NCBI GenBank assembly: GCA_001817505.1
Contig: MHIM01000004.1
Location: 6,953 to 70,952 of the forward strand
Length of the DNA: 64,000 bases
Direction: 5' to 3'
Source: Candidatus Buchananbacteria bacterium RIFCSPLOWO2_01_FULL_39_33
GTDB taxonomy: Bacteria; Patescibacteriota; Patescibacteriia; 2-01-FULL-39-33
Made by a program: the position numbers and the translations under genes. Below, piece after piece: positions 5,528 to 55,822 of the stretch. The number at the start of each line of letters is the position of its first letter. Within the stretch, counting starts at the first letter, position 1. The notes below the pieces were generated by a model that was not told the DNA's origin, made no database searches, and saw nothing but the letters and a program-made list of their open reading frames with translations.

Positions 5528-5534
5528 AAATGAA

Positions 5535-6165
5535 AAGAGCCCCCACCTACTTATTGTTCGGTGAGGGCTGGACGCCGCCGACGGGTGTTACCCGAAGCGA
5601 CATCGGGCTTTTAGGAAGGAGTGCCGGCAGATGAAAGCCGGGAGCGGGCAGGAGAAGCGAGAAATTCATATCCCGTCCCCTGTATGTTACAGAATCAAGC
5701 GAGCCGATTGCCACTTGTTCATCTGCATGCTTGCAGCAGATCGGTTATGTCCGACGCTCAATTCCTGGCCTACTGGCTTGATACACAGACCAAACCAGAT
5801 TCCCGCCCAGCGAACTGTTCAGCCCGCCGGCACTCCAAGCTCCAAAGGAACTGGCACACTACAGTAGTGTGCCACGACCGCGAAAATTAAAATTTCGCAT
5901 ACCTGGGATTACCTCCCGGTTGGTCGCCGCCACATTAATTACAGATCAGCGGCGAGGACTGCGGTTTCAATAGCCCACCAGAGCAAAGCACCAGGCACCG
6001 GGGCGAGAGGCACCAGGCACTTAAGGAGAGAACTACACATACCCGACTGGATATTTCATCCGCACGGGTACCTCCTTTCTTTTCCCTGTTCAACTTAATA
6101 TGTATGTTCGGAGGTTGATCTTTCGCAACCTCTCTGTGAGACATTATATCACACCCATGTTTTTT
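5535..6165. ncRNA. GC-rich non-coding island, candidate structured RNA of undetermined class
   Basis: About 630 nt, far GC-richer than the flanks and full of local hairpins (e.g. cccgaagcgacatcggg). It carries only Arg-rich junk ORFs in several frames and lies between ybaB and recR. Confidence 0.3.
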
Positions 6166-9583: not shown

Positions 9584-10750
9584 TCATAATTTTCCCCGGC
9601 TTATTGCTTGGCGAATTTCCACCATTAAGGTTAAATAAAATTCCAAATTATTCAAAGTTGCCAAGCGCATAGCTAAGGGCTCTTTGGTTTTGAATAAGTG
9701 ATGCAAATAAGCCCGGCTGTATTGTTTTAGGTTAGTGTTATTGATAGGCGTTTTATCACTTCTGAACCTCGCATTAGTGATATTTATAGTAGTATAAAAT
9801 TTTCCTTCCTTTCCCAAAGAAAGACCAGGGAGAAATTGGCCGACTGTCGGCCAACCTCCCCTTAATCCCCTCCTTGGTAAGGAGGGGAAACAATATAACC
9901 GACCATGTCTGGCTTCCCGAGTCGGGATGACACAGTCAAACATATCCACACCGCGTTTGACTGCTTCAATGATATTGGCCGGCGTGCCTACACCCATTAA
10001 ATACCGCGGTTTATCCTTTGGCATGGCTGGAGTTAAATAATCCAAAACTTTATACATTTCTTTGGGACTTTCGCCAACCGCCAAGCCGCCAATAGCATAA
10101 CCGTCCCAGCCAAGCGAAACCAAGTCATTTAAACTCTTTAAGCGCAAATCTTTATATAAACCGCCTTGAATAATTCCAAAAAATAATTGATTTCTTGATT
10201 TATTGTTTTCTGGTTTTCTTGTTTTTTTGATTTCTTGACTAGCTTCCTTGGCCCAAATAGTCGTCAAATCAACCGCTGCTTTAATTTTTGATTTATTTTC
10301 TTTGGAACTCGGACAGACATCTAAAATCATAGCAATATCCGAGCCGATTATTTTTTGTATCTCTAAAACTTTTTTCGGCGTTAAAACATGCTTACTGCCA
10401 TCAATGGGCGAACTAAATTCAACACCATAGGGCATGATCTTTCTAATTTTAGCCAGAGAAAAAACCTGAAAGCCGCCGCTATCGGTTAAAATCGGGCCTG
10501 ACCAGTTCATTAATTTATGCAAACCACCGATCTTTTCTAAAACCTTTAAACCCGGCTGAAGATATAAATGATAAGTGTTAGCCAAGATAATTTCCGCTCC
10601 CAAACCCTTAACTTCATCGGCAGTCAGGTTTTTTACCGCCGCTTTAGTGGCTAGAGGCATAAAAAACGGAGTTGGGATATCTCCGTGCGCCGTTTTTAAA
10701 ATTCCCAAGCGGGCCTGGGATTTTTGGGAAGTTTTTAATAATTTATACAT
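9584..10750 (-). CDS. tgt: queuine tRNA-ribosyltransferase Tgt carrying an in-frame repeat-derived insertion
   Basis: [37 protein letters not shown] and YSRAYLHHL are all present. A 31-aa segment [31 protein letters not shown] is encoded by the palindromic repeat. Confidence 0.85.
   Translation of the reverse strand: [388 protein letters not shown]
9803..9893. repeat. GC-rich modular palindromic repeat (CCCCTCC..GGAGGGG family) inserted in-frame in tgt
   Basis: Contains cccctccttggtaaggagggg and ggccgactgtcggcc palindromes. GC-rich against an AT-rich gene. Shares modules with the copies in uvrA and uvrB. Confidence 0.6.
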
Positions 10751-21070: not shown

Positions 21071-21596
21071 GTTCAAACAAGTTGGATGGTTGCTCTGATG
21101 CCGTCAATTGGCGGAATATCGGAGAGGAAAGTCCGAACACTCTTTGATAATTTATCAATATTTATCAATGTCATGGTAGTGGGTAACGCCCACCGGCTAG
21201 ATTGCAAAATATAGTCAGGACCAGTTCCACAGAGACAATACTAACCAGTACTACGCATTAGAAATCCTAAATCCAAAAATACAAACCCCAAATAAATTAA
21301 TTCAAAAAATAAAAATTGAATTCAAAATTGGGAGTTGGAAATTTGGTGCTTGGAATTTCCACTGCGTGGTAGTGGTAAAAGGTGAAAAGTGTTATGATGT
21401 TTTGGGATTAAGCAAGGGATATCCCCTTAGCCCAAAGCTACATGACTCAACTGTCGGCAACCGGCAGTTTGTGGTAAACTCTACCTGGTGCAACCTCAAA
21501 TATAGTAGAGGGCTGGAGCTTGCCAGCAATGACAAGCCAAGATAGATAACCATCTCCCTAACAGGAACAGAATTCGGCTTACAGGCTTGTTTGAAC
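21071..21596 (+). ncRNA. rnpB: RNase P RNA (bacterial type A) with a large AT-rich internal expansion
   Basis: P4 strands GAGGAAAGTCCGAAC and ACAGAATTCGGCTTACAGGC are present. P1 pairs gttcaaacaag (21071..) with cttgtttgaac (..21596). A GGTAACGCCCACC module is also seen. Confidence 0.8.
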
Positions 21597-21603
21597 AAAA
21601 AAA

Positions 21604-22149: not shown

Positions 22150-22315
22150 AAATGAATTTGACTGCGGTCTAAAGACCGCAGTACCTGCCTGCCGGCAGGC
22201 AGGTCTGGGCAAATTCAGAATGACTGGTAGAGACGGGGCATGCCCCGTCTCTACCGCCGACAATATTTTTTCTCACACTGGCCTTCATCCCCTGGCTTAA
22301 AAGCCAGGGGTATTC
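22150..22315. repeat. intergenic cluster of four perfect GC-rich hairpins (REP-like)
   Basis: ctgcggtctAAAgaccgcag, acctgcctgccggcaggcaggt, ggtagagacggggcatgccccgtctctacc and cccctggcttaaaagccagggg lie consecutively. Confidence 0.6.
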
Positions 22316-40088: not shown

Positions 40089-40529
40089 TTAAAAATCAGC
40101 CAATTCTTGCCAAGACAAAATATTAATTTGCGGATTAATCTGGTCAATATTTAATTTTACTTTTCTAACCGCCTTCCCAGCCTGGCCAGAGGCAATAATC
40201 AGCCGGCTTTCACTACCGGTATTAGCGACCGTAAAAGAGCAGCTGCCTTGAGTTAAAGATAAATTGCCAGAACCAGAAAAATTGATATCATTTCTTACTT
40301 CCTGAAGAGCCTGTTCAGCGCAAGCATTGGCTAAAGATTTGGCTTGAGCTGACTTTTCCAAAGACAGACTGGACTGGCTAGCGCCTAAACCTAATAAAAC
40401 CAAAGAAACTGTTATAGCCAAACCGACGGCACCGACTACTAAAACGCTAAGCAGGGTAACATAACCTTCGGTTTTGATTAATTTTTTATCTAAGCGAAGC
40501 CGAACCATAAAAGGTCTTGGTGTAATCAT
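40089..40529 (-). CDS. hypothetical pilus-associated membrane protein
   Basis: 146 aa, N-terminal TM helix, located inside the pilus operon. Confidence 0.35.
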   Translation of the reverse strand: MITPRPFMVRLRLDKKLIKTEGYVTLLSVLVVGAVGLAITVSLVLLGLGASQSSLSLEKSAQAKSLANACAEQALQEVRNDINFSGSGNLSLTQGSCSFTVANTGSESRLIIASGQAGKAVRKVKLNIDQINPQINILSWQELADF

Positions 40530-41343
40530 ACTCTTTTTTATTCTCCGGATTAATATGCTTTAAGGTAAATGTTATTCTGACAGTGCCGGGGGTATTAGTG
40601 ATAGACAAATTATCAAAATTTAAATTAGAGGATTCTATTCTAGAGGAGGTTAGATTAACCGGTAAATTAGATCCTTCGGCCATTAAAATAGCTGTGCCTG
40701 ACAAGCTAAAAATAGTCGGGCTTAATGAAATATCAGAAACATTCAAAGATAATTGCGAGGCGCTGCTACCGGCCATTGGTGAATTAATAACCTCGGAGTT
40801 GCGAATAGTTTGAGTGATTATATTCATCACCTGCCAACCCTGTTGTTCAACTTCTGAAACAACTTGGTTATCTACCCGCGATTGTAAAATTACCGATAAA
40901 AATATGGAAACAGTTAAAAGCATAGCTGATGACAGACCGATATAAAGCAATAATTCAATTAGGGTAAACCCAGCACCACTTTTATCGTTAACGATAAAAG
41001 TGGTGCTGGGTAAACCCTCAACCTCATTATTTTTTTTATTTTTATCAATATTAATATTAATCAATCCATTTCTCTTTTTTAATTCTCTTATTGCGTTGCC
41101 ATTATATTTTAATCTTTTCTCTCTAACCCTTGCTAATCGTTCTGTTTTATATGATTCATAATAAACTAAAGTCCAAGGCATATAACGCCTTGTTGATTTT
41201 TCTTTTCCACTATTATGTTTGGAAAATCTTCTTTTTAGATCTCCCGTTGAACCGATATATATCTCACTATTCATGTTATTTTTTAATAAATAAACATAAT
41301 ACATATAATTAAAAGTGGTGCTGGGTGAAACCTTTTTTATCAA
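40486..41343 (-). CDS. GIY-YIG nuclease domain (about 81 aa) fused in-frame to a prepilin-like protein
   Basis: YYVYLLKN..EIYIGSTGDLKRRFSKHN...WTLVYYESY is the GIY-YIG fold. No stop intervenes before KSGAGFTLIELLL and the pilin body. The listed start is TTG; the ATG (MYYVY) is at 41304. Confidence 0.5.
   Translation of the reverse strand: MIKKVSPSTTFNYMYYVYLLKNNMNSEIYIGSTGDLKRRFSKHNSGKEKSTRRYMPWTLVYYESYKTERLARVREKRLKYNGNAIRELKKRNGLININIDKNKKNNEVEGLPSTTFIVNDKSGAGFTLIELLLYIGLSSAMLLTVSIFLSVILQSRVDNQVVSEVEQQGWQVMNIITQTIRNSEVINSPMAGSSASQLSLNVSDISLSPTIFSLSGTAILMAEGSNLPVNLTSSRIESSNLNFDNLSITNTPGTVRITFTLKHINPENKKEYDYTKTFYGSASLR
40962..41017. repeat. 56-nt near-perfect palindrome spanning the pilin N-terminal coding region
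   Basis: gggtaaacccagcaccactttt-atcgttaacgat-aaaagtggtgctgggtaaaccc. Related arms lie at 39935..39948 and 40000..40013 (inverted pair) and 41311..41332. Confidence 0.7.
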
Positions 41344-48971: not shown

Positions 48972-50150
48972 TTATTTAACAGGGTTAACAATACTAAATC
49001 TTTTTCTTCTCCTTTGGCAGCTGGCGGCATTGCCGAAACGATGCGCTTCGTCCCGGACTTTTACCAGCATTATTCTTTGCGATTGCGCCAATTCCCTGAC
49101 GGCCTGGCTCATTTTATCAGGGAACACCATTCTATCACCAGCGAATTTAGAAAGACCGATAATCGGAATATTGAGATGGAGATCACGAAAAATTTTACTG
49201 ATATAATCAATTTGCGGTCGTCCGCCGTCAATTAAAATCAAATTAGGCCATGGCCATTCCTGGTGCTTGAATCTCCTTCTGATCATTTCTTCCAAAGCCC
49301 GCAAATCATCATTTTTGGGAGCTTCTTTGATGTTGAATAAGCGGTATTCATCCTTAGCTAACTGGCCATTAATGGCTACCGACATAGCGCCAATCGTTTC
49401 TTGACCGGTCAGATGGGAAATATCATAACCCTCAATCCGGTTTTTGACAGCCCTGGCATCAACTTCATCTTGGGTAATTAAAGTCACATCCTGGATATTT
49501 TTAAGTAGGCCGGCTAATTTCGGATTGTCTTTCTTTAATTTTTTCACTAACCTTTTCTTTTGGCCTTTGAATAATAAAACTATATTTTGGATATTTTCCT
49601 GGTAATCTTTCTGGGTAATTTCGCCAATACAAGTTCCTGGACAAAGCCCGACTTGATAATCAAAGCATGGCCGGCCTGAATTAGGCAGGCAAGTGCTGTA
49701 AGGAAAAACCCGTCGGATAATCCTTAAAGTATTTTTGAGCAAGGTGGCATTCTGATAAGGGCCGAAGATATGCACTTGGTTAGTAGGAAATTTATTCAAT
49801 TCCCGTTCGCGAACAATAATCGGATAAGCATAAGCTTTTTTAGAAATCACCACAAAAATAAAAGACCGCTGGTCTTTGTCTTTGACATTATATTTCGGCC
49901 AATGCTTTTTTATCAGATTGGCTTCCAAAATCACCGCTTCCAAGACAGTATCGGTTTTTTTATGCCTGATGCTTTTAGCCAAAGATACCATTTCAGCTAT
50001 GCGAGAATCAATATCTTTCCTAAAATACTGCAAGACACGTTTTTTCAAGCTGGTCGCCCGGCCAATATAAAGAATCTCGCCCTTTTGGCCGATGAACATA
50101 TAAACACCTGGAGATAATGGTAATTTAACTGCTTTTTCTTTCAAATTCAT
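48972..50150 (-). CDS. uvrC: excinuclease ABC subunit C, short form (GIY-YIG plus RNase H-like endonuclease domains)
   Basis: PGVYMFIGQKGEILYIGRATSLKKRV is GIY-YIG. C-terminal LILIDGGRPQ...IIGLSK...VRDEAHRFG. Only 392 aa; UVR and (HhH)2 regions are not apparent. Confidence 0.7.
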   Translation of the reverse strand: MNLKEKAVKLPLSPGVYMFIGQKGEILYIGRATSLKKRVLQYFRKDIDSRIAEMVSLAKSIRHKKTDTVLEAVILEANLIKKHWPKYNVKDKDQRSFIFVVISKKAYAYPIIVRERELNKFPTNQVHIFGPYQNATLLKNTLRIIRRVFPYSTCLPNSGRPCFDYQVGLCPGTCIGEITQKDYQENIQNIVLLFKGQKKRLVKKLKKDNPKLAGLLKNIQDVTLITQDEVDARAVKNRIEGYDISHLTGQETIGAMSVAINGQLAKDEYRLFNIKEAPKNDDLRALEEMIRRRFKHQEWPWPNLILIDGGRPQIDYISKIFRDLHLNIPIIGLSKFAGDRMVFPDKMSQAVRELAQSQRIMLVKVRDEAHRFGNAASCQRRRKRFSIVNPVK

Positions 50151-50876: not shown

Positions 50877-53624
50877 TTATTTCAAATACTCTTTCAAATA
50901 TTTGCCAGTCACGCTTTTGTCATTATTTATAATTTCTTCCGGCGTGCCTTTAGCCACTAAGTAGCCGCCTCGATCCCCGCCTTCAGGTCCCAAATCAATC
51001 ACATAATCGGCAGCATGGATAATATGCATATTGTGTTCAATCACCGCAATGCTGTTTTGCCTGTCAATTAATTTGTTCAAAACTTTAAGCAGCAGCTCAA
51101 TATCATGGTAATGCAAACCGACTGTGGGCTCATCCAATAAATATAAGGTCTTGCGTCCTAAAGTATGAGTTAATTCTCTGGCTAATTTTATCCTTTGGGC
51201 TTCACCGCCGGAAAGTGTAGTGGCACTCTGGCCTAATTGCAGATAACCCAAACCGACTTCCTGCAAGACCTTCAATTTGTCGGTAATCTGATAATGGCTG
51301 TCAAAATAACCGATGGCTTCATCGATAGTTAAAGCCAGAACTTCGGAAATATTTTTGCCTTTATATTTGACTTGCAAAGTCTCGCGATTGAATCTTTTGC
51401 CGTGGCAGACCTCGCATTCAACTGTGACGGCTGGCAAGAAATGCATTTCTATTAAATTGGAGCCGGCGCCAGCGCAGGCCTCGCAGCGTCCGCCCGGCCG
51501 GTTGAAGGAAAACCGAGAAAGCGTATAACCGCGTTCGCGCGATTCCGGCAACAGCGCAAAGAATTCCCTGACGGGAGTAAAAATACCGGTATAAGTGGCT
51601 GGGTTGGAACGTGGCGTTCGGCCTATGGGCGACTGGTCAACTACCACCACTCGATTAATATATTCCGTGCCTAAAATTTTGGCGACATCTTCCAGTTCTC
51701 TCTTTCTGTAATCCTCTCCTGCCCGAAAAGAGGTGGCACGAAATGCCGAAGAGGTAGGAGCAGCCAAAGGCGGATTAGCTTTTATTTTTTGGACATTCTT
51801 ATATAAGACATCATAAAGCAAAGATGACTTGCCGCTGCCGGAAACGCCAGTCAGGCAAACCATTTTCCTAAGCGGTATATCAACTTGAACATTTTTCAAA
51901 TTATTAGCTCGGGCGCCGATAATCTTAATGGCCTCGCTGGTGGCAGTACGCCGGTGTGAAGCCGTTTCAATTACCCTTTCACCCCTTAAATATTCCAGAG
52001 TTAATGATTTTTGGGGATTATTTTTTTTGAGCAGTTCTTGAGTTTCACCAATAGCCACCACTTGCCCGCCCTGACTGCCGGCCAACGGCCCTAAGTCAAC
52101 AAAAAAATCCGAGGCCCTGATAGTTCTTTCATCATGCTCAACGATAATCACCGAGTTGCCCTGCTCTTTTAAGGATTTTAAAGTTTTAATCAATCTTTCC
52201 GTGTCCCGTTCATGCAAGCCGATTGTCGGCTCATCCAAAACATATAAAGTTTTGGACAAGTGCGAACCGATTTGCGAACCTAATCTTATCCTTTGCGCTT
52301 CGCCGCCCGATAGCGTTTCAGCTTCGCGGCTAAGCGATAAATAATTAAGTCCCACTTGCAATAAAAAATCCAAGCGGTCCGCAATTTCTATGACAACATT
52401 TTCGGCAATGTCTTTTTGTCTCGCGGTCATTTTATTATGGTAAGTAATAAAAAAGTCATAGGCCTGTTCAATAGATATAGCACTGACCTGGGCGATATTT
52501 TTGCCGCTCACTCTGACCGATAATGACTCCGGTCTTAACCTCTGGCCTTCACAAGCCTGACAAAGCTCAACAGCTTTTTCATATTGGTTCCGATACTCGC
52601 CGACTTCCTGGCCTTCTTCAGCCAGTTTCTTTTTATTTTCCCATAATTCCAATTTACCTAAGCCGTGGCATTTTTCGCAGGCGCCATGCGGGCTGTTAAA
52701 AGAAAATAATCTTGGCTCAACTTCCGGAAAAGCGAAACCGTCATGAGGACAAGTCCAATTAGATGAAAGTAGAAATTCTAATGTTATCCCCTCCTTACCA
52801 AGGAGGGGTTTCGGGGTGGTTGCCGAAATTTTTGGCCAACCCTTCCCTGCCTCCCTTTGGTAAGGGGAGGATTTTATTTTCTTCCCCTTAGTAAGGGGAG
52901 AATTATTATTAAATAAAGCAACTACCAAACCATTAGTATAATTAATGGCATTTTCCACCGCTTCCGATAATCTACTTTCATCATTAATCATCACTTTATC
53001 TATAACAATATCAATACTATGTTTGCTGTGTCTGGCTAATTTTACTTTTTCATGAAGAGAATGAAATTTACCATCAATTCTAGCTTCGGAAAATCCCAAA
53101 TTAAGATAATCATAAAGCAACTGGTAATACTCGCCTTTCCGATCAACTACTACCGGAGCTAAAATCGTCACATATTCTTCATTTAATTCTTTGGCCCGGT
53201 TTTTAATGATATCAATCATCTCATCCAGCGCCAGTTTATCAATTTTGCGGCCGCATTTAGGACAATAAACTTCTCCCAGCCGGGCGTATAAAACACGCAG
53301 ATAATCATAAATCTCCGTCAGGGTGCCGACAGTAGAACGCGGATTATGCGAAAGAGCTTTTTGGTCAATGGAAATAGAAGGCGCCAAGCCAATTATTTCA
53401 TCAACATCAGCCGGCTTCATCTGGCCCAAGAATTGTCTGGCGTAAGGCGAGAGTGATTCAATATAACGCCTCTGGCCTTCGGCAAAAATAGTATCATAGG
53501 CCAGCGATGATTTACCGCTGCCGGAAACGCCGGTAAAAACCACCAATTGGTTATGGGGTATGGCCAAGTCAACATTCTTTAAATTGTGCACCCGCGCCCC
53601 GCGGATGGTTATCTGATCTTTCAT
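50877..53624 (-). CDS. uvrA: excinuclease ABC subunit A with an in-frame repeat-derived insertion
   Basis: Two ABC modules (GVSGSGKSSL, LSGGE), the zinc-finger region and EPRLFSFNSP. A 38-aa segment PLTKGKKIKSSPYQREAGKGWPKISATTPKPLLGKEGIT is encoded by the palindromic repeat just before zinc finger 2. Confidence 0.9.
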   Translation of the reverse strand: MKDQITIRGARVHNLKNVDLAIPHNQLVVFTGVSGSGKSSLAYDTIFAEGQRRYIESLSPYARQFLGQMKPADVDEIIGLAPSISIDQKALSHNPRSTVGTLTEIYDYLRVLYARLGEVYCPKCGRKIDKLALDEMIDIIKNRAKELNEEYVTILAPVVVDRKGEYYQLLYDYLNLGFSEARIDGKFHSLHEKVKLARHSKHSIDIVIDKVMINDESRLSEAVENAINYTNGLVVALFNNNSPLTKGKKIKSSPYQREAGKGWPKISATTPKPLLGKEGITLEFLLSSNWTCPHDGFAFPEVEPRLFSFNSPHGACEKCHGLGKLELWENKKKLAEEGQEVGEYRNQYEKAVELCQACEGQRLRPESLSVRVSGKNIAQVSAISIEQAYDFFITYHNKMTARQKDIAENVVIEIADRLDFLLQVGLNYLSLSREAETLSGGEAQRIRLGSQIGSHLSKTLYVLDEPTIGLHERDTERLIKTLKSLKEQGNSVIIVEHDERTIRASDFFVDLGPLAGSQGGQVVAIGETQELLKKNNPQKSLTLEYLRGERVIETASHRRTATSEAIKIIGARANNLKNVQVDIPLRKMVCLTGVSGSGKSSLLYDVLYKNVQKIKANPPLAAPTSSAFRATSFRAGEDYRKRELEDVAKILGTEYINRVVVVDQSPIGRTPRSNPATYTGIFTPVREFFALLPESRERGYTLSRFSFNRPGGRCEACAGAGSNLIEMHFLPAVTVECEVCHGKRFNRETLQVKYKGKNISEVLALTIDEAIGYFDSHYQITDKLKVLQEVGLGYLQLGQSATTLSGGEAQRIKLARELTHTLGRKTLYLLDEPTVGLHYHDIELLLKVLNKLIDRQNSIAVIEHNMHIIHAADYVIDLGPEGGDRGGYLVAKGTPEEIINNDKSVTGKYLKEYLK
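52788..52915. repeat. GC-rich modular palindromic repeat inserted in-frame in uvrA
   Basis: Successive palindromes cccctccttaccaaggagggg, tttcggggtggttgccgaaa, cctccctttggtaaggggagg and tcccctta-gtaagggga. Confidence 0.65.
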
Positions 53625-53763
53625 TTGAATTAATAAATTTTGAATTATGAATTTTTAATCAATTTTGAAATTTTAATTTTGAATATAATTTTTATTTTTA
53701 TTAAAAATTAAATCATTAAAAAAATAAATCATCAAAAATTTATTCGAAATTAGAAATTAAAAA

Positions 53764-55746
53764 TTAGTTATTTTTCCCAATATCCAATAACTCTTCAATC
53801 TCTTTTTGGATTGTTTTAGGCGTGATTTTGTGCTTCTTGTTATAAACCAACTGCAACTGCCTCCGCCTGTCCACCACTTCCATCGCCCGCTTCATTGAAC
53901 CGGTCTTTTTATCGGCATATAAAATGACTTTGCTTGAGACATTTCTGGCGGCTCGGCCCATGGTCTGGATCAGCGATTCCTCGCTGCGCAAAAAGCCCTC
54001 ACGGTCGGCATCCATAATCGCCACCAGTGTCACTTCCGGCAAATCCAAACCCTCGCGCAGCAGATTAACGCCAACTAAAATATCAAACTGGCCTTCTCTA
54101 AACTCTCGTAAAATTTCCGTCCTTCTGAAAGTTTTGACATCACTATGCAGGTAAGCGGCTTTAAAGCCGTTCTTTTGCAGATAAGAATCCAGGTCTTCGG
54201 CCATTTTTTTAGTTAAGGTGTTAACGATGACTCGGCCGGTTTGAATATCTCCCCTCCTTTCCAAGAAGGGGCTGGGGGTGCCTGCTTGCCGGTAGGCAAG
54301 GTTGACCGAAGATTTCGGCCAACTCCTCTCTATCTCCCCTTGGTAAGGGGAGAATTTTATTTGTTTTCCTTTAGTAAGGGGAAGAAAAACTATTTTTTTC
54401 AACTCTTTGATCAAATCATCAACTTGGCTACGATTAGTTTTCTTGTCGTAAACTGAACGGATTTCAATCGGCGGATCAATTAAACCGGTCGGACGAATAA
54501 CTTGTTCTACCACTTTCTTGGAATGGCTGATTTCCCAAGCGCCGGGAGTAGCCGAAGTAAAAATCGTCTGGCCGATGCGCTTTAAAAATTCCTCAAACTT
54601 CAACGGTCGATTATCCAAAGCGCTGGGCAGTCGCCAGCCATATTTGATTAGGTTCTCTTTTCTGGCTCGATCGCCCTCATACATGCCGCGCACCTGCGGC
54701 AAACCGATATGCGACTCATCCATAATCAAAAGAAAATCTGGCCGGCTTTTTTTATCTTTAGGGAAATATGACAAGAGCGAATCAGGCGCTTCACCGGCCA
54801 ATTTGCCCGTCAGATGCCGGGAATAATTTTCAATGCCATGGCAATAGCCCAAACTCCTTAACATCTCCATATCGTATTTGGTGCGCCTCTCCAATCTTTC
54901 GGCTTCCAGATACAAATTATTTTTGGCAAAAAAATTTAATCTGTCTTTTAATTCAACTTTAATATCTTTGATGGCCCGTTCAATTTCCGGCTTAGTGGAA
55001 ATAAAATGCTTAGGCGGAAAAATAATTATATCTTTCAGGTCTTTAATGATGCGTCTGGTGATTTTATCAACTAGGCCGATATCAGAAACTTTCTGCTCGC
55101 TTAATTCTAACCGGTAAATAACTTCTTCGGCCGCCGGCATAATTTCAAAAACATCGCCCCGCACCCGAAAATGCCCGCGTTTCAACTCGCCTGGCGTTCT
55201 GGCAAATTGCATCTTAACCAATTGAGAAATCAGATCTTTTCTGACAATCGGCTGGCCGATGGATAAATGAAGCGAGGATTCGGTATAGCTGACCGGCAAA
55301 CCCAGGTTATAAATGCAGGAAACTGAAGCCACGATTATGACATCGCGCCTGGTTGAGAGAGCAGTTGTCGCCTGATGGCGCCAGCGGTCAATTTCTTCGT
55401 TGATCATCGCTTCTTTTTCTATATAAGTATCGCTTGATGGCATATAGGCCTCGGGCTGATAATAATCGTAATAAGAAACAAAATAATTAACGCTGTTTTT
55501 GGGGAAAAAATTCTTGTACTCGCGGTAAAGCTGGGCAGCTAAAGCTTTGTTTGGCGCCATTACCAAAACCGGCCGATTGAAATGCTCTATCACTTTGGCC
55601 ATAGTAAAAGTTTTGCCCGAACCGGTAACGCCCAAAAGCGTTTGAAAATCATGATTTTTTTTCAAACTGCCGATTAGCTCTTTGATGGCCTGCGGTTGAT
55701 CGCCGGCTGGAGCAAATTTGGATTTTAATTGGAATATTTTTGTCAT
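53764..55746 (-). CDS. uvrB: excinuclease ABC subunit B with an in-frame repeat-derived insertion
   Basis: FAPAGDQPQAI, GVTGSGKTFT, and helicase motifs through LLREGLDLPEV and GRAARN. A roughly 50-aa segment FLPLTKGKQIKFSPYQGEIERSWPKSS...RRGDIQT is encoded by the repeat. Start set at MTKIFQ to avoid overlapping the tRNA. Confidence 0.9.
   Translation of the reverse strand: MTKIFQLKSKFAPAGDQPQAIKELIGSLKKNHDFQTLLGVTGSGKTFTMAKVIEHFNRPVLVMAPNKALAAQLYREYKNFFPKNSVNYFVSYYDYYQPEAYMPSSDTYIEKEAMINEEIDRWRHQATTALSTRRDVIIVASVSCIYNLGLPVSYTESSLHLSIGQPIVRKDLISQLVKMQFARTPGELKRGHFRVRGDVFEIMPAAEEVIYRLELSEQKVSDIGLVDKITRRIIKDLKDIIIFPPKHFISTKPEIERAIKDIKVELKDRLNFFAKNNLYLEAERLERRTKYDMEMLRSLGYCHGIENYSRHLTGKLAGEAPDSLLSYFPKDKKSRPDFLLIMDESHIGLPQVRGMYEGDRARKENLIKYGWRLPSALDNRPLKFEEFLKRIGQTIFTSATPGAWEISHSKKVVEQVIRPTGLIDPPIEIRSVYDKKTNRSQVDDLIKELKKIVFLPLTKGKQIKFSPYQGEIERSWPKSSVNLAYRQAGTPSPFLERRGDIQTGRVIVNTLTKKMAEDLDSYLQKNGFKAAYLHSDVKTFRRTEILREFREGQFDILVGVNLLREGLDLPEVTLVAIMDADREGFLRSEESLIQTMGRAARNVSSKVILYADKKTGSMKRAMEVVDRRRQLQLVYNKKHKITPKTIQKEIEELLDIGKNN
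54249..54392. repeat. GC-rich modular palindromic repeat inserted in-frame in uvrB
   Basis: cccctcctttccaagaagggg, cttgccggtaggcaag, ctccccttggtaaggggag and ttagtaagggga. Clearly related to the uvrA copy, including the encoded PLTKGK.IK.SPYQ peptide. Confidence 0.65.
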
Positions 55747-55748
55747 AG

Positions 55749-55822
55749 TGGGCATATCCCGATTTGAACGGGAGACCTTTCGGATGTGAACCGAATGCTC
55801 TAACCAGCTGAGCTATATACCC
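55749..55822 (-). tRNA. tRNA-Val (anticodon CAC), no encoded CCA
   Basis: Reverse complement reads gggtatatagctcagctggttagagcattcggttcacatccgaaaggtctcccgttcaaatcgggatatgccca. Cloverleaf with a 7-bp acceptor stem and anticodon loop ttCACat. Confidence 0.8.

Follow-up and report, generated by a model that had tools for sequence, protein, structure and literature searches.

Triplex-type composite repeats lie in frame within uvrA, uvrB and tgt of a Candidatus Buchananbacteria genome

We analyzed a 64-kb stretch of DNA (contig MHIM01000004.1, positions 6,953 to 70,952; hereafter, the window) from an ultra-small groundwater bacterium, Candidatus Buchananbacteria, of the Patescibacteria or candidate phyla radiation (CPR); this window was the scope of our genome-level search for repeat copies. 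It holds three related G/C-rich multi-hairpin elements of 96–137 nt, each lying in frame within a conserved gene, namely uvrA, uvrB and tgt. By sequence, the modules of these elements are not plain palindromes but BoxC/PIT/TMECO-type units, which belong to the class II intrastrand purine-motif triplex motifs. The elements are probably selfish or mobile triplex-type composite repeats, which survive only in frame where the host protein tolerates them and then decay. The observations behind this reading are the anatomy of the elements, the covariation of their arms under a mirror rule, empty sites in orthologues, repeated independent occupation of the same loops, a contrast in coding placement between CPR and other genomes, and the decay of individual copies. 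A preliminary description of the same DNA, made from its letters alone, was right in outline, having proposed a repeat family inserted in frame and tolerated there; it missed the triplex architecture and the spread across bacteria.

Three related elements in uvrA, uvrB and tgt

When the window was searched with a profile of the element, exactly three strong copies emerged (E = 2e-39, 5e-38 and 4e-29). The third, in tgt at 9795–9890, is oriented to its host gene oppositely to the uvrA and uvrB copies. The latter two had been described as related, and their alignment bears this out, with a mean column identity of 79% and 82% identity over 77 ungapped nt; among all three copies identity is 79–82%, spacers included. 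The elements have a G+C content of ~50%, compared with ~40% for the window. Folding, which the preliminary description had proposed as a check, gave runs of hairpins for all three elements as single-stranded DNA, with z-scores of −4.0 to −5.6.

In each element, two units in inverted (head-to-head) orientation flank a small central hairpin, and beyond them comes a third hairpin, which has no tail. Within a unit the order of parts is a pyrimidine (Y) arm, a loop, the complementary purine (R) arm, a linker of ~3 nt, and a tail of G and T (or A) in mirror image to the purine arm; a full one-unit example reads CCCCTCCTTACCAAGGAGGGGTTTCGGGGTGGTT. The stem sequence of the central hairpin varies between copies with its pairing preserved. 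The features are as follows, units being marked intact or decayed according to this layout.

50877–53624, minus strand: uvrA host gene, an intact open reading frame (ORF) of 915 aa; E = 3e-270 to T. maritima UvrA (3pih).
52787–52902, plus strand: uvrA element, 116 nt, 52% G+C, antisense to the gene; translation SPLTKGKKIKSSPYQREAGKGWPKISATTPKPLLGKEG; absent from the closest orthologue, L123.
52788–52821, plus strand: uvrA unit 1, intact triplex-type motif called by the strict finder; Y arm CCCCTCCTT, loop ACC, R arm AAGGAGGGG, linker TTTC, mirror tail GGGGTGGTT, the mirror rule being satisfied at 9/9 tail positions.
52818–52841: uvrA central hairpin GGTTGCCGAAA/TTTGGCCAACC, joining the two inverted units.
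52838–52870, minus strand: uvrA unit 2, inverted, decayed triplex-type motif read from the sequence; plus strand AACCCTTCCC-TG-CCTCCCTTT-GGT-AAGGGGAGG.
52883–52899: uvrA third hairpin TCCCCTTA-G-TAAGGGGA, without mirror tail; common to the uvrB copy.
53764–55755, minus strand: uvrB host gene, an intact ORF of 663 aa; 100% identical to P0001, Candidatus Buchananbacteria.
54250–54386, plus strand: uvrB element, 137 nt, 51% G+C, antisense to the gene; translation LPLTKGKQIKFSPYQGEIERSWPKSSVNLAYRQAGTPSPFLERRG; site empty in P0002, P0003 and L121.
54251–54280, plus strand: uvrB unit 1, decayed, CCCCTCCTT-TCC-AAGAAGGGG-CTG-GGGGTG; a nested palindrome shortens its tail.
54281–54301: nested mini-palindrome CCTGCTTGCCGGTAGGCAAGG, 21 nt, forming its own hairpin; without counterpart in the uvrA copy (20-nt alignment gap).
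54301–54323: uvrB central hairpin GTTGACCGAAGATTTCGGCCAAC, from folding and sequence.
54323–54353, minus strand: uvrB unit 2, triplex-type motif called by the strict finder; TCTCCCCTT-ACC-AAGGGGAGA-T-AGAGAGGAG, one mismatch over 8.
54366–54383: uvrB third hairpin TTCCTTTAGTAAGGGGAA, from alignment of the copies.
9584–10750, minus strand: tgt host gene, ORF of 388 aa.
9795–9890, minus strand: tgt element, 96 nt, in sense orientation; translation FPSLPRRGLRGGWPTVGQFLPGLSLGKEGK; a decayed orthologous copy is present in L203.
9853–9887, minus strand: tgt unit 1, intact triplex-type motif, CCCCTCCTT-ACC-AAGGAGGGG-ATTAA-GGGGAGGTT, rule satisfied 9/9.
9803–9854, minus strand: tgt central hairpin TTGGCCGACAGTCGGCCAA and decayed second unit (TTTCTCCC..TCTTTCTTT-GGG-AAAGGAAGGA), from folding and comparison with L203.
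63448–63482: pyrimidine/purine mirror palindrome CCCCTCCTCCCCCCTCC-TGATCA-GGGGAGGAA, in the spacer directly upstream of the enolase start; weak profile match, E = 0.006.

The palindromes first reported in uvrA lie where they had been placed, CCCCTCCTT-ACC-AAGGAGGGG at 52788–52808 and TCCCCTTAGTAAGGGGA at 52883–52899, and dinucleotide shuffles of the window gave 0 matches to either palindrome pattern. Their portrayal as perfect applies to some and not to others: CTCCCTTTGGTAAGGGGAG at 52851–52869 has one mismatch relative to the perfect uvrB version at 54334–54352, and every element pairs an intact unit with a decayed one. Both repair genes remain open through the element without a stop (915 aa and 663 aa), as had been claimed, and encode the related peptides then quoted; the peptides within the inserts include SSPYQREAGKGWPK and FSPYQGEIER. 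Taken whole, each element is open in 2–3 of 6 frames. The arms carry stretches resembling Shine–Dalgarno (SD) and anti-SD sequences, AAGGAGG and CCTCCTT.

The mirror palindrome at 63448–63482 is the sole non-coding relative of the family within the window. It was rejected as a triplex unit, having no usable linker, and is counted as a relative only. On the mRNA strand it provides a GGAGG-rich stretch before the enolase ATG.

The third arm follows a mirror rule across phyla

In the tail, each G of the purine arm is answered by G, and each A by T or A. As the mirror of the purine arm, the tail has exactly the sequence expected of an antiparallel reverse-Hoogsteen third strand. The arm order of ITxF class II, as defined in PMC4666352, occurs at 52788–52821 (+), 9853–9887 (−) and 54323–54353 (−). 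That definition specifies an antiparallel third arm, G·G-C and T/A·A-T triplets, stems of 6–15 nt, at most one mismatch and loops of 1–6 nt; uvrA unit 1 and tgt unit 1 have 9/9 such triplets, and their loops are 3 and 4–5 nt long. In the cell, these units may fold into triplexes, to judge by their sequence.

We then scanned the first hairpin pattern, CCCCTCCTTNCCAAGNAGGGG, over one genome per species and obtained at least 120 loci. Among the matches listed, hairpin loci of this type come from many phyla and more than 100 genomes, and 114/156 hairpin-pattern matches listed carry the tail GGGG[T/A]GGT, mostly 3 nt downstream. The rule extends beyond this arm. A perfect mirror tail accompanied 31% of 535 de-duplicated hairpin-strand instances (each hairpin being counted on both strands, this is ~62% of hairpins), compared with 1.9% for a direct-repeat control. 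For hairpins with other arms, the tail fitted its own arm in 39% of strand instances versus 15% when arms were permuted among units. In total, 28 distinct arms from many phyla obey the rule, for example AAGAGGGG with tail GGGGAGAT and GGGAGAAGG with tail GGATGAGGG. Opposite A, the third-strand base was T in 250 cases, A in 136, G in 3 and C in 2; opposite G, it was G in 1150 cases and another base in 19. The linker measured 3 nt in 139/195 cases. Applied to 801 kb of CPR DNA from the surroundings of uvrA, a strict motif finder identified 7 motifs, compared with 0 in each of five shuffles. Such covariation across phyla is comparative evidence of selection on the third-strand arm, which earlier in vivo footprinting could not provide.

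Units also occur in head-to-tail arrays with a 41-nt period, the copy number reaching 8 or more, at L017 7120–7320 and L115 4620–5020 (Thiomargarita); the L115 array sits within a 226-codon open frame.

Empty and filled sites in orthologues

Alignment with orthologues, another check proposed at the outset, delimited the segments. Relative to solved chains, the extra residues are UvrA 235–284, UvrB 455–505 and Tgt 288–321, where the solved chains have 10, 4 and 4 residues, respectively. An alternative is that these segments are ancestral, lineage-specific protein loops that are palindromic at the DNA level by chance. In its favor, the tgt insert is common to a 76%-identical orthologue, and "empty" CPR Tgt orthologues keep 10–14 residues in the loop, versus 4 in solved structures. 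For UvrA and UvrB the nearest orthologues contradict this explanation.

The closest UvrB orthologues, P0002 and P0003 (89% identity), have an empty site; together with P0007–P0010 they read ELKVIV-KNGER-AIINTLTKK, with nothing between. In a neighbor-joining tree of UvrB, the window protein is sister to empty alleles, and a second filled clade, P0004–P0006, is sister to the empty P0007; these positions therefore imply at least two gains at the UvrB site. The same site holds another pair of triplex-type units in P0004 and unrelated palindrome families in P0005/P0006, P0044 and P0069. A second UvrB loop is filled in P0026, P0044 and P0065. Likewise, the closest UvrA relative, L123 (83% identity), reads ALF-REKKQDSP-EFLLSS where the window protein has a 45-residue stretch; this UvrA loop carries independent pairs of the triplex-type unit in L126 and L148 and other sequences in L133 and L143. 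In Tgt, the loop between HGRLY and FYxTINITNA varies in almost every CPR orthologue. The tgt element is shared with P0122/L203, the 76%-identical orthologue, at ~80% nucleotide identity; the window and L203 lineages have each degraded a different unit of the shared copy, which has undergone a 3-nt deletion in L203. L204 carries an independent pair of units in tgt in a different arrangement.

Empty sites in the closest UvrA and UvrB orthologues, combined with different inserts in distant CPR bacteria, argue for insertion, as the preliminary description had held. In addition, three unrelated genes house a single nucleotide family, with both orientations represented and the frame varying among them, and the unit also occurs in non-coding DNA of many phyla. 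From these comparisons the segments are best taken as inserted repeat copies, and we give practically no credence to ancestral loops. The gain and loss of triplex motifs at defined sites yields pairs of filled and empty alleles with which the mechanism of insertion can be worked out.

The same CPR loops also receive other repeat families in frame, encoding peptides such as VIARSEATKQSR..., SLRGSRKATKQSRRLLRFARND and IATLLPATRNDS; the carriers are P0005/P0006, P0044 and P0069 for UvrB, L127 and L133 for UvrA, and P0123, P0135 and P0152 for Tgt. The phenomenon is thus not confined to the triplex-type family. Because the same loops accept unrelated palindrome families, such hotspots more likely reflect what the protein tolerates than a preference of the element for particular targets.

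Several further peculiarities of the host proteins were noted. A second extra segment of UvrA (51704–51770, residues ~619–640) reads PLAAPTSSAFRATSFRAGEDYR where L123 has RLATNVK. Its DNA comprises the direct repeat ACCTCTTCGGCA / ACCTCTTTTCGGGCA and a weak pyrimidine/purine hairpin; being a direct repeat and not a mirror, it was rejected as a member of the family. At residues 324–339, the window UvrA lacks a counterpart to ~70 residues of T. maritima UvrA (3pih 284–368), a stretch that we take to be the UvrA insertion domain. Typical CPR UvrA relatives are only ~833–838 aa long. Tgt residues ~335–345 read PINNTNLKQYS, as in all CPR orthologues aligned, compared with the zinc-binding CDCYTC of the best-matching solved bacterial Tgt.

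Reading frames are retained in every insertion examined

None of the eight uvrA, uvrB and tgt insertions that we examined disrupts the reading frame (unconstrained chance ~1.5e-4). This record implies that other outcomes were removed by selection, and indicates that the inserts are probably translated. The elements might instead go untranslated, through intron-like removal from the mRNA or through ribosome bypass as in T4 gene 60 or mitochondrial "byp" sequences; strong hairpins (z = −4 to −5.6) with SD/anti-SD-like arms could in principle stall or redirect ribosomes. Inserts removed or bypassed in this way would escape frame constraints, so the constraints seen argue against both routes: every insertion adds whole codons without stops even though only 2–3 of 6 frames are open, and the decay of the shared tgt copy includes a frame-keeping 3-nt deletion. 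The element has no Rfam match to any intron or ribozyme; at gathering or E-value thresholds Rfam returned nothing relevant to it, the best candidates (LLnc147, sX13 and Pedo-repair) falling far below cut-offs. We therefore regard removal or bypass as very improbable.

Placement of triplex-type motifs in CPR and other genomes

We compared where the motifs lie relative to ORFs of at least 200 codons. In non-CPR loci, 53/180 motifs (29%) fell within such an ORF versus 81% of random positions, which means that motifs avoid coding sequence in these genomes; many of the 53 genic cases lie at the extreme edge of the ORF. In CPR loci the figure was 23/28, with 72–81% for random positions, and the difference in genic placement between CPR and non-CPR loci was significant (Fisher p = 1.5e-7).

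The preliminary description had expected further copies. Besides the third copy in tgt, triplex-type units lie in frame in at least seven further CPR genes; Pfam domains to either side of the insert confirm these hosts as real genes, whose products include a PfkB kinase, MgsA/RarA, a beta-CASP (RNase J-like) RNase, MnmA, TrpF, and peptidases U32 and M50. The BoxC-type class thus occurs in frame in uvrA, uvrB, tgt, mnmA, mgsA, trpF and others across Patescibacteria. Three uvrA and two uvrB genes were hit in the sampled loci. Specific targeting of nucleotide excision repair genes was rejected, as sampling was centered on uvrA and the other hosts are unrelated.

Among single in-frame CPR units (L010, L013, L064, L072, L120 and L095), the G-rich strand is the template strand of the host gene in 5/6, although cases are few. 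The mRNA of these genes carries a complement of the AACCACCCC type, read as TTP, TSP or NHP.

Other features of the window

In the spacer between an RNase H gene and the next ORF (22158–22253), three perfect palindromes follow one another: CTGCGGTCTAAAGACCGCAG, ACCTGCCTGCCGGCAGGCAGGT and GGTAGAGACGGGGCATGCCCCGTCTCTACC. The second of them (~22190) resembles the nested palindrome of the uvrB element (54281–54301), as well as the "LPAGRQG" and "LPTGQAG" peptides seen as insertions in UvrA and Tgt of other CPR bacteria. These similarities suggest a putative second mini-palindrome family.

The uvrC gene (48972–50150), which adjoins uvrA and uvrB, is short, encoding 392 aa with GIY-YIG and RNase H-like domains only; a separate 285-aa GIY-YIG protein is encoded at 40486–41343 in a region of type IV pilus/secretion genes. 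The RNase P RNA match (21074–21597) spans 524 nt against a 367-position model, that is, ~150 nt extra. Between dnaB and recR, ~500 nt (5534–6052) have a G+C content of 56–59%; this interval contains neither a long ORF nor a called tRNA or tmRNA, and nothing in Rfam matched it at the gathering score.

Discussion

We propose that the elements arose and persist as follows. As a single strand, a unit would fold back twice into a Y:R·R triple helix, and on double-stranded DNA or RNA it would form merely a hairpin. Copies would be added by a copy-and-paste process, for which we consider two candidates: a trans-acting enzyme that recognizes the folded single strand, and repair with template switching at forks stalled by the structure. 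With little non-coding DNA in the genome, most insertions would fall in genes. Survivors would be those that insert only complete codons, are read in one of the 2–3 stop-free frames and lie within a permissive loop. Because the arms are made only of C/T or only of A/G, which cannot encode stop codons, they are nearly stop-free by composition. The insert would then be translated as an extra loop and would decay neutrally, with frame as the sole constraint.

Conservation of the mirror rule across phyla, alongside decay of individual copies, fits a structure needed for propagation and not for the host. Useful elements retained by the host would also account for the conservation, from which it follows that the folded structure has at some point been selected. 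They could act as a DNA signal (replication pausing, a hotspot of recombination or variation, or a G-quadruplex/hairpin switch) or as an mRNA regulator. Holder et al. (PMC4666352) associate the motifs with instability of the surrounding genome, for which they suggest, as speculation, an adaptive value. For conserved G-rich E. coli motifs, whether or not these are BoxC, Kaplan et al. 2016 (PMC5100583) propose a conserved switch between G-quadruplex, hairpin and duplex. Yet the units decay after insertion, one of each pair being degenerate, and two lineages have degraded different tgt units; the host genes are functionally unrelated, and the closest relatives manage without inserts. A quadruplex, moreover, does not need the mirror placement of A/T positions, and a structure that serves propagation only would equally lead one to expect a conserved rule. 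A beneficial role is therefore unlikely, in our judgment.

The presence and absence of the segments among orthologues points to mobility, putatively by transposition. Several observations weigh against the account proposed here. No convincing target-site duplication or clean junction was found on comparing filled with empty uvrA and uvrB sites, whose flanks have diverged too far for a consistent one to show, and no transposase, RAYT or IS200/IS605 protein was found among 46 window ORFs scanned with Pfam. The earlier claim of a mobile family thus stands as regards presence and absence, and finds no backing from these two hallmarks. At the UvrB site (window ~54240–54250; alignment columns 530–590), the flank changes from KNGER to (Q/K)TG-R: the filled alleles P0001, P0004, P0005/6, P0069 and P0044 all lack the Glu of K-x-G-E-R after the site, most reading TG-R. 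This change, common to separate clades with different element families, is something that simple independent insertion fails to explain. The AlphaFold model of UvrB shows the insert as coil (pLDDT 22–25) between a more confident helix (441–452) and strand (505–510), and the model as a whole is poor (mean pLDDT 57); the inserts may be surface loops, as first proposed, to judge by their position in alignments and by the coil in this low-confidence model. The placement analysis used stop-to-stop ORFs as a proxy for genes. Its loci had been selected through the motif itself or through uvrA, and arrays within one ORF inflate counts, so that the contrast between CPR and non-CPR loci is pseudo-replicated to some degree. 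Finally, Holder et al. 2015 (PMC4666352) found for TMECO no association with mobile elements and no in vivo evidence of a triplex.

The lack of target-site duplications at the uvrA and uvrB junctions and of a transposase among the scanned ORFs would suit a local origin without transposition, in which template switching or repair at purine-rich seeds generates the elements and a shared mutational mechanism accounts for their similarity. The loops hit are rich in Lys, Gly and Glu, that is, in purine-rich codons, and polymerase arrest by triplex motifs features in work cited within PMC4666352. Such generation is hard to reconcile with the 79–82% identity of the uvrA and uvrB copies over ~115 nt, which includes the unstructured spacers GATTTTATTT and the third hairpin; local generation would not be expected to yield these shared parts. 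Identical stems also recur in more than 100 genomes among the matches listed. A local origin thus seems improbable, and we retain copying of a repeat as the preferred explanation. Carriage by phages between phyla was rejected, with merely 2 matches in viral contigs.

The suggestion that the family is active or recently active is not borne out: between the uvrA and uvrB copies the divergence is ~20%, and the tgt element, which is decaying, also occurs in a 76%-identical orthologue. A broader proposition, which we put forward tentatively and with some doubt, is that in Patescibacteria, with their near-zero intergenic space, triplex-type and other palindrome families routinely colonize permissive loops of essential proteins. 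If true, proteins of the CPR radiation would owe variation in length to a general source that has not been described before. For annotators and structure predictors there is a caution, in that many lineage-specific loops of CPR proteins may be repeat insertions.

Comparison with known repeat families

BoxC/PIT/TMECO repeats have been known since the 1990s and have no established function or mode of spread. The structural class to which we assign the units by sequence is thus already known; their placement inside genes and their sequence differ from TMECO. The units resemble BoxC/PIT/TMECO in the order of parts, in G/C-rich arms of 8–9 nt, in a loop of ~3 nt and in G·G-C and T·A-T/A·A-T triplets, as well as in frequent inverted pairs, in a function and a mobilizing enzyme that are not known, and, for TMECO, in unstable loci. 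The account in Holder et al. 2015 (PMC4666352), with Hoyne et al. 2000 as cited there, treats BoxC, PIT elements and TMECO as successive names for the class II intrastrand triplex motif. According to PMC4666352, motifs of this class are abundant in bacteria when G/C-rich, and the single strand of the E. coli sequence forms a triplex in vitro; formation in vivo was not demonstrated, and the authors state that the triplex cannot form in RNA. In E. coli K-12, TMECO is always intergenic; inverted pairs account for 5/23 motifs, and variation at the loci is unusually high (PMC4666352).

Here, by contrast, the units lie in frame within conserved genes, as part of a composite with a central and a third hairpin, and the arms are CCCCTCCTT/AAGGAGGGG/GGGG[T/A]GGTT versus CCCTCNCCC/GGGNGAGGG/GGGNGAGGG in TMECO. 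The window units do not match the strict TMECO pattern, 5′-CCCTCNCCC N3–6 GGGNGAGGG N3 GGGNGAGGG-3′, and all three copies lie within ORFs and not in intergenic DNA as strict TMECO does. TMECO-like arms, GGGAGAGGG with tail GGGTGAGGG, are present in other loci that we fetched.

With REP/REPIN sequences and MITEs, the elements share a short, non-autonomous, multi-copy nature and, with REPIN, two inverted units that form a long hairpin. They differ in having no conserved GTAG/CGTC head and in possessing the third-strand tail, which has no counterpart in REP/REPIN/MITE; nor was a RAYT or transposase gene seen among the 46 window ORFs scanned, or a target-site duplication at the diverged uvrA and uvrB junctions. 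REP and REPIN are extragenic by definition.

The closest parallel in behavior, and in behavior only, is with the Rickettsia palindromic elements (RPEs), which had been proposed as the model in the preliminary description. Both are palindromic repeats of ~100–150 bp that lie in frame in unrelated housekeeping genes of a small genome, and the extra peptide segments, probably translated here, are apparently compatible with function. In the window, palindromic insertions lie in frame in conserved ORFs and are absent from orthologues, which does not make the element an RPE: the modules are predicted triplex motifs found across bacteria, the lineage is Patescibacteria and not Rickettsia, no relationship at the sequence level is expected, and several unrelated palindrome families share the same CPR loops. 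To our knowledge, the triplex mirror rule has not been described for RPEs. In-frame palindromic repeats in Rickettsia housekeeping genes were reported by Ogata et al. (2000, 2002), as summarized in PMC10969869; that 2024 review presents RPEs as still the outstanding in-frame case, similar cases elsewhere being only conjectured. Our literature search returned no report of triplex-type units inside genes, nor of RPE-like insertion linked to CPR bacteria. With the elements described here, in-frame colonization by palindromic repeats, hitherto a peculiarity of Rickettsia, would reach a second group of reduced genomes, and a very large one.

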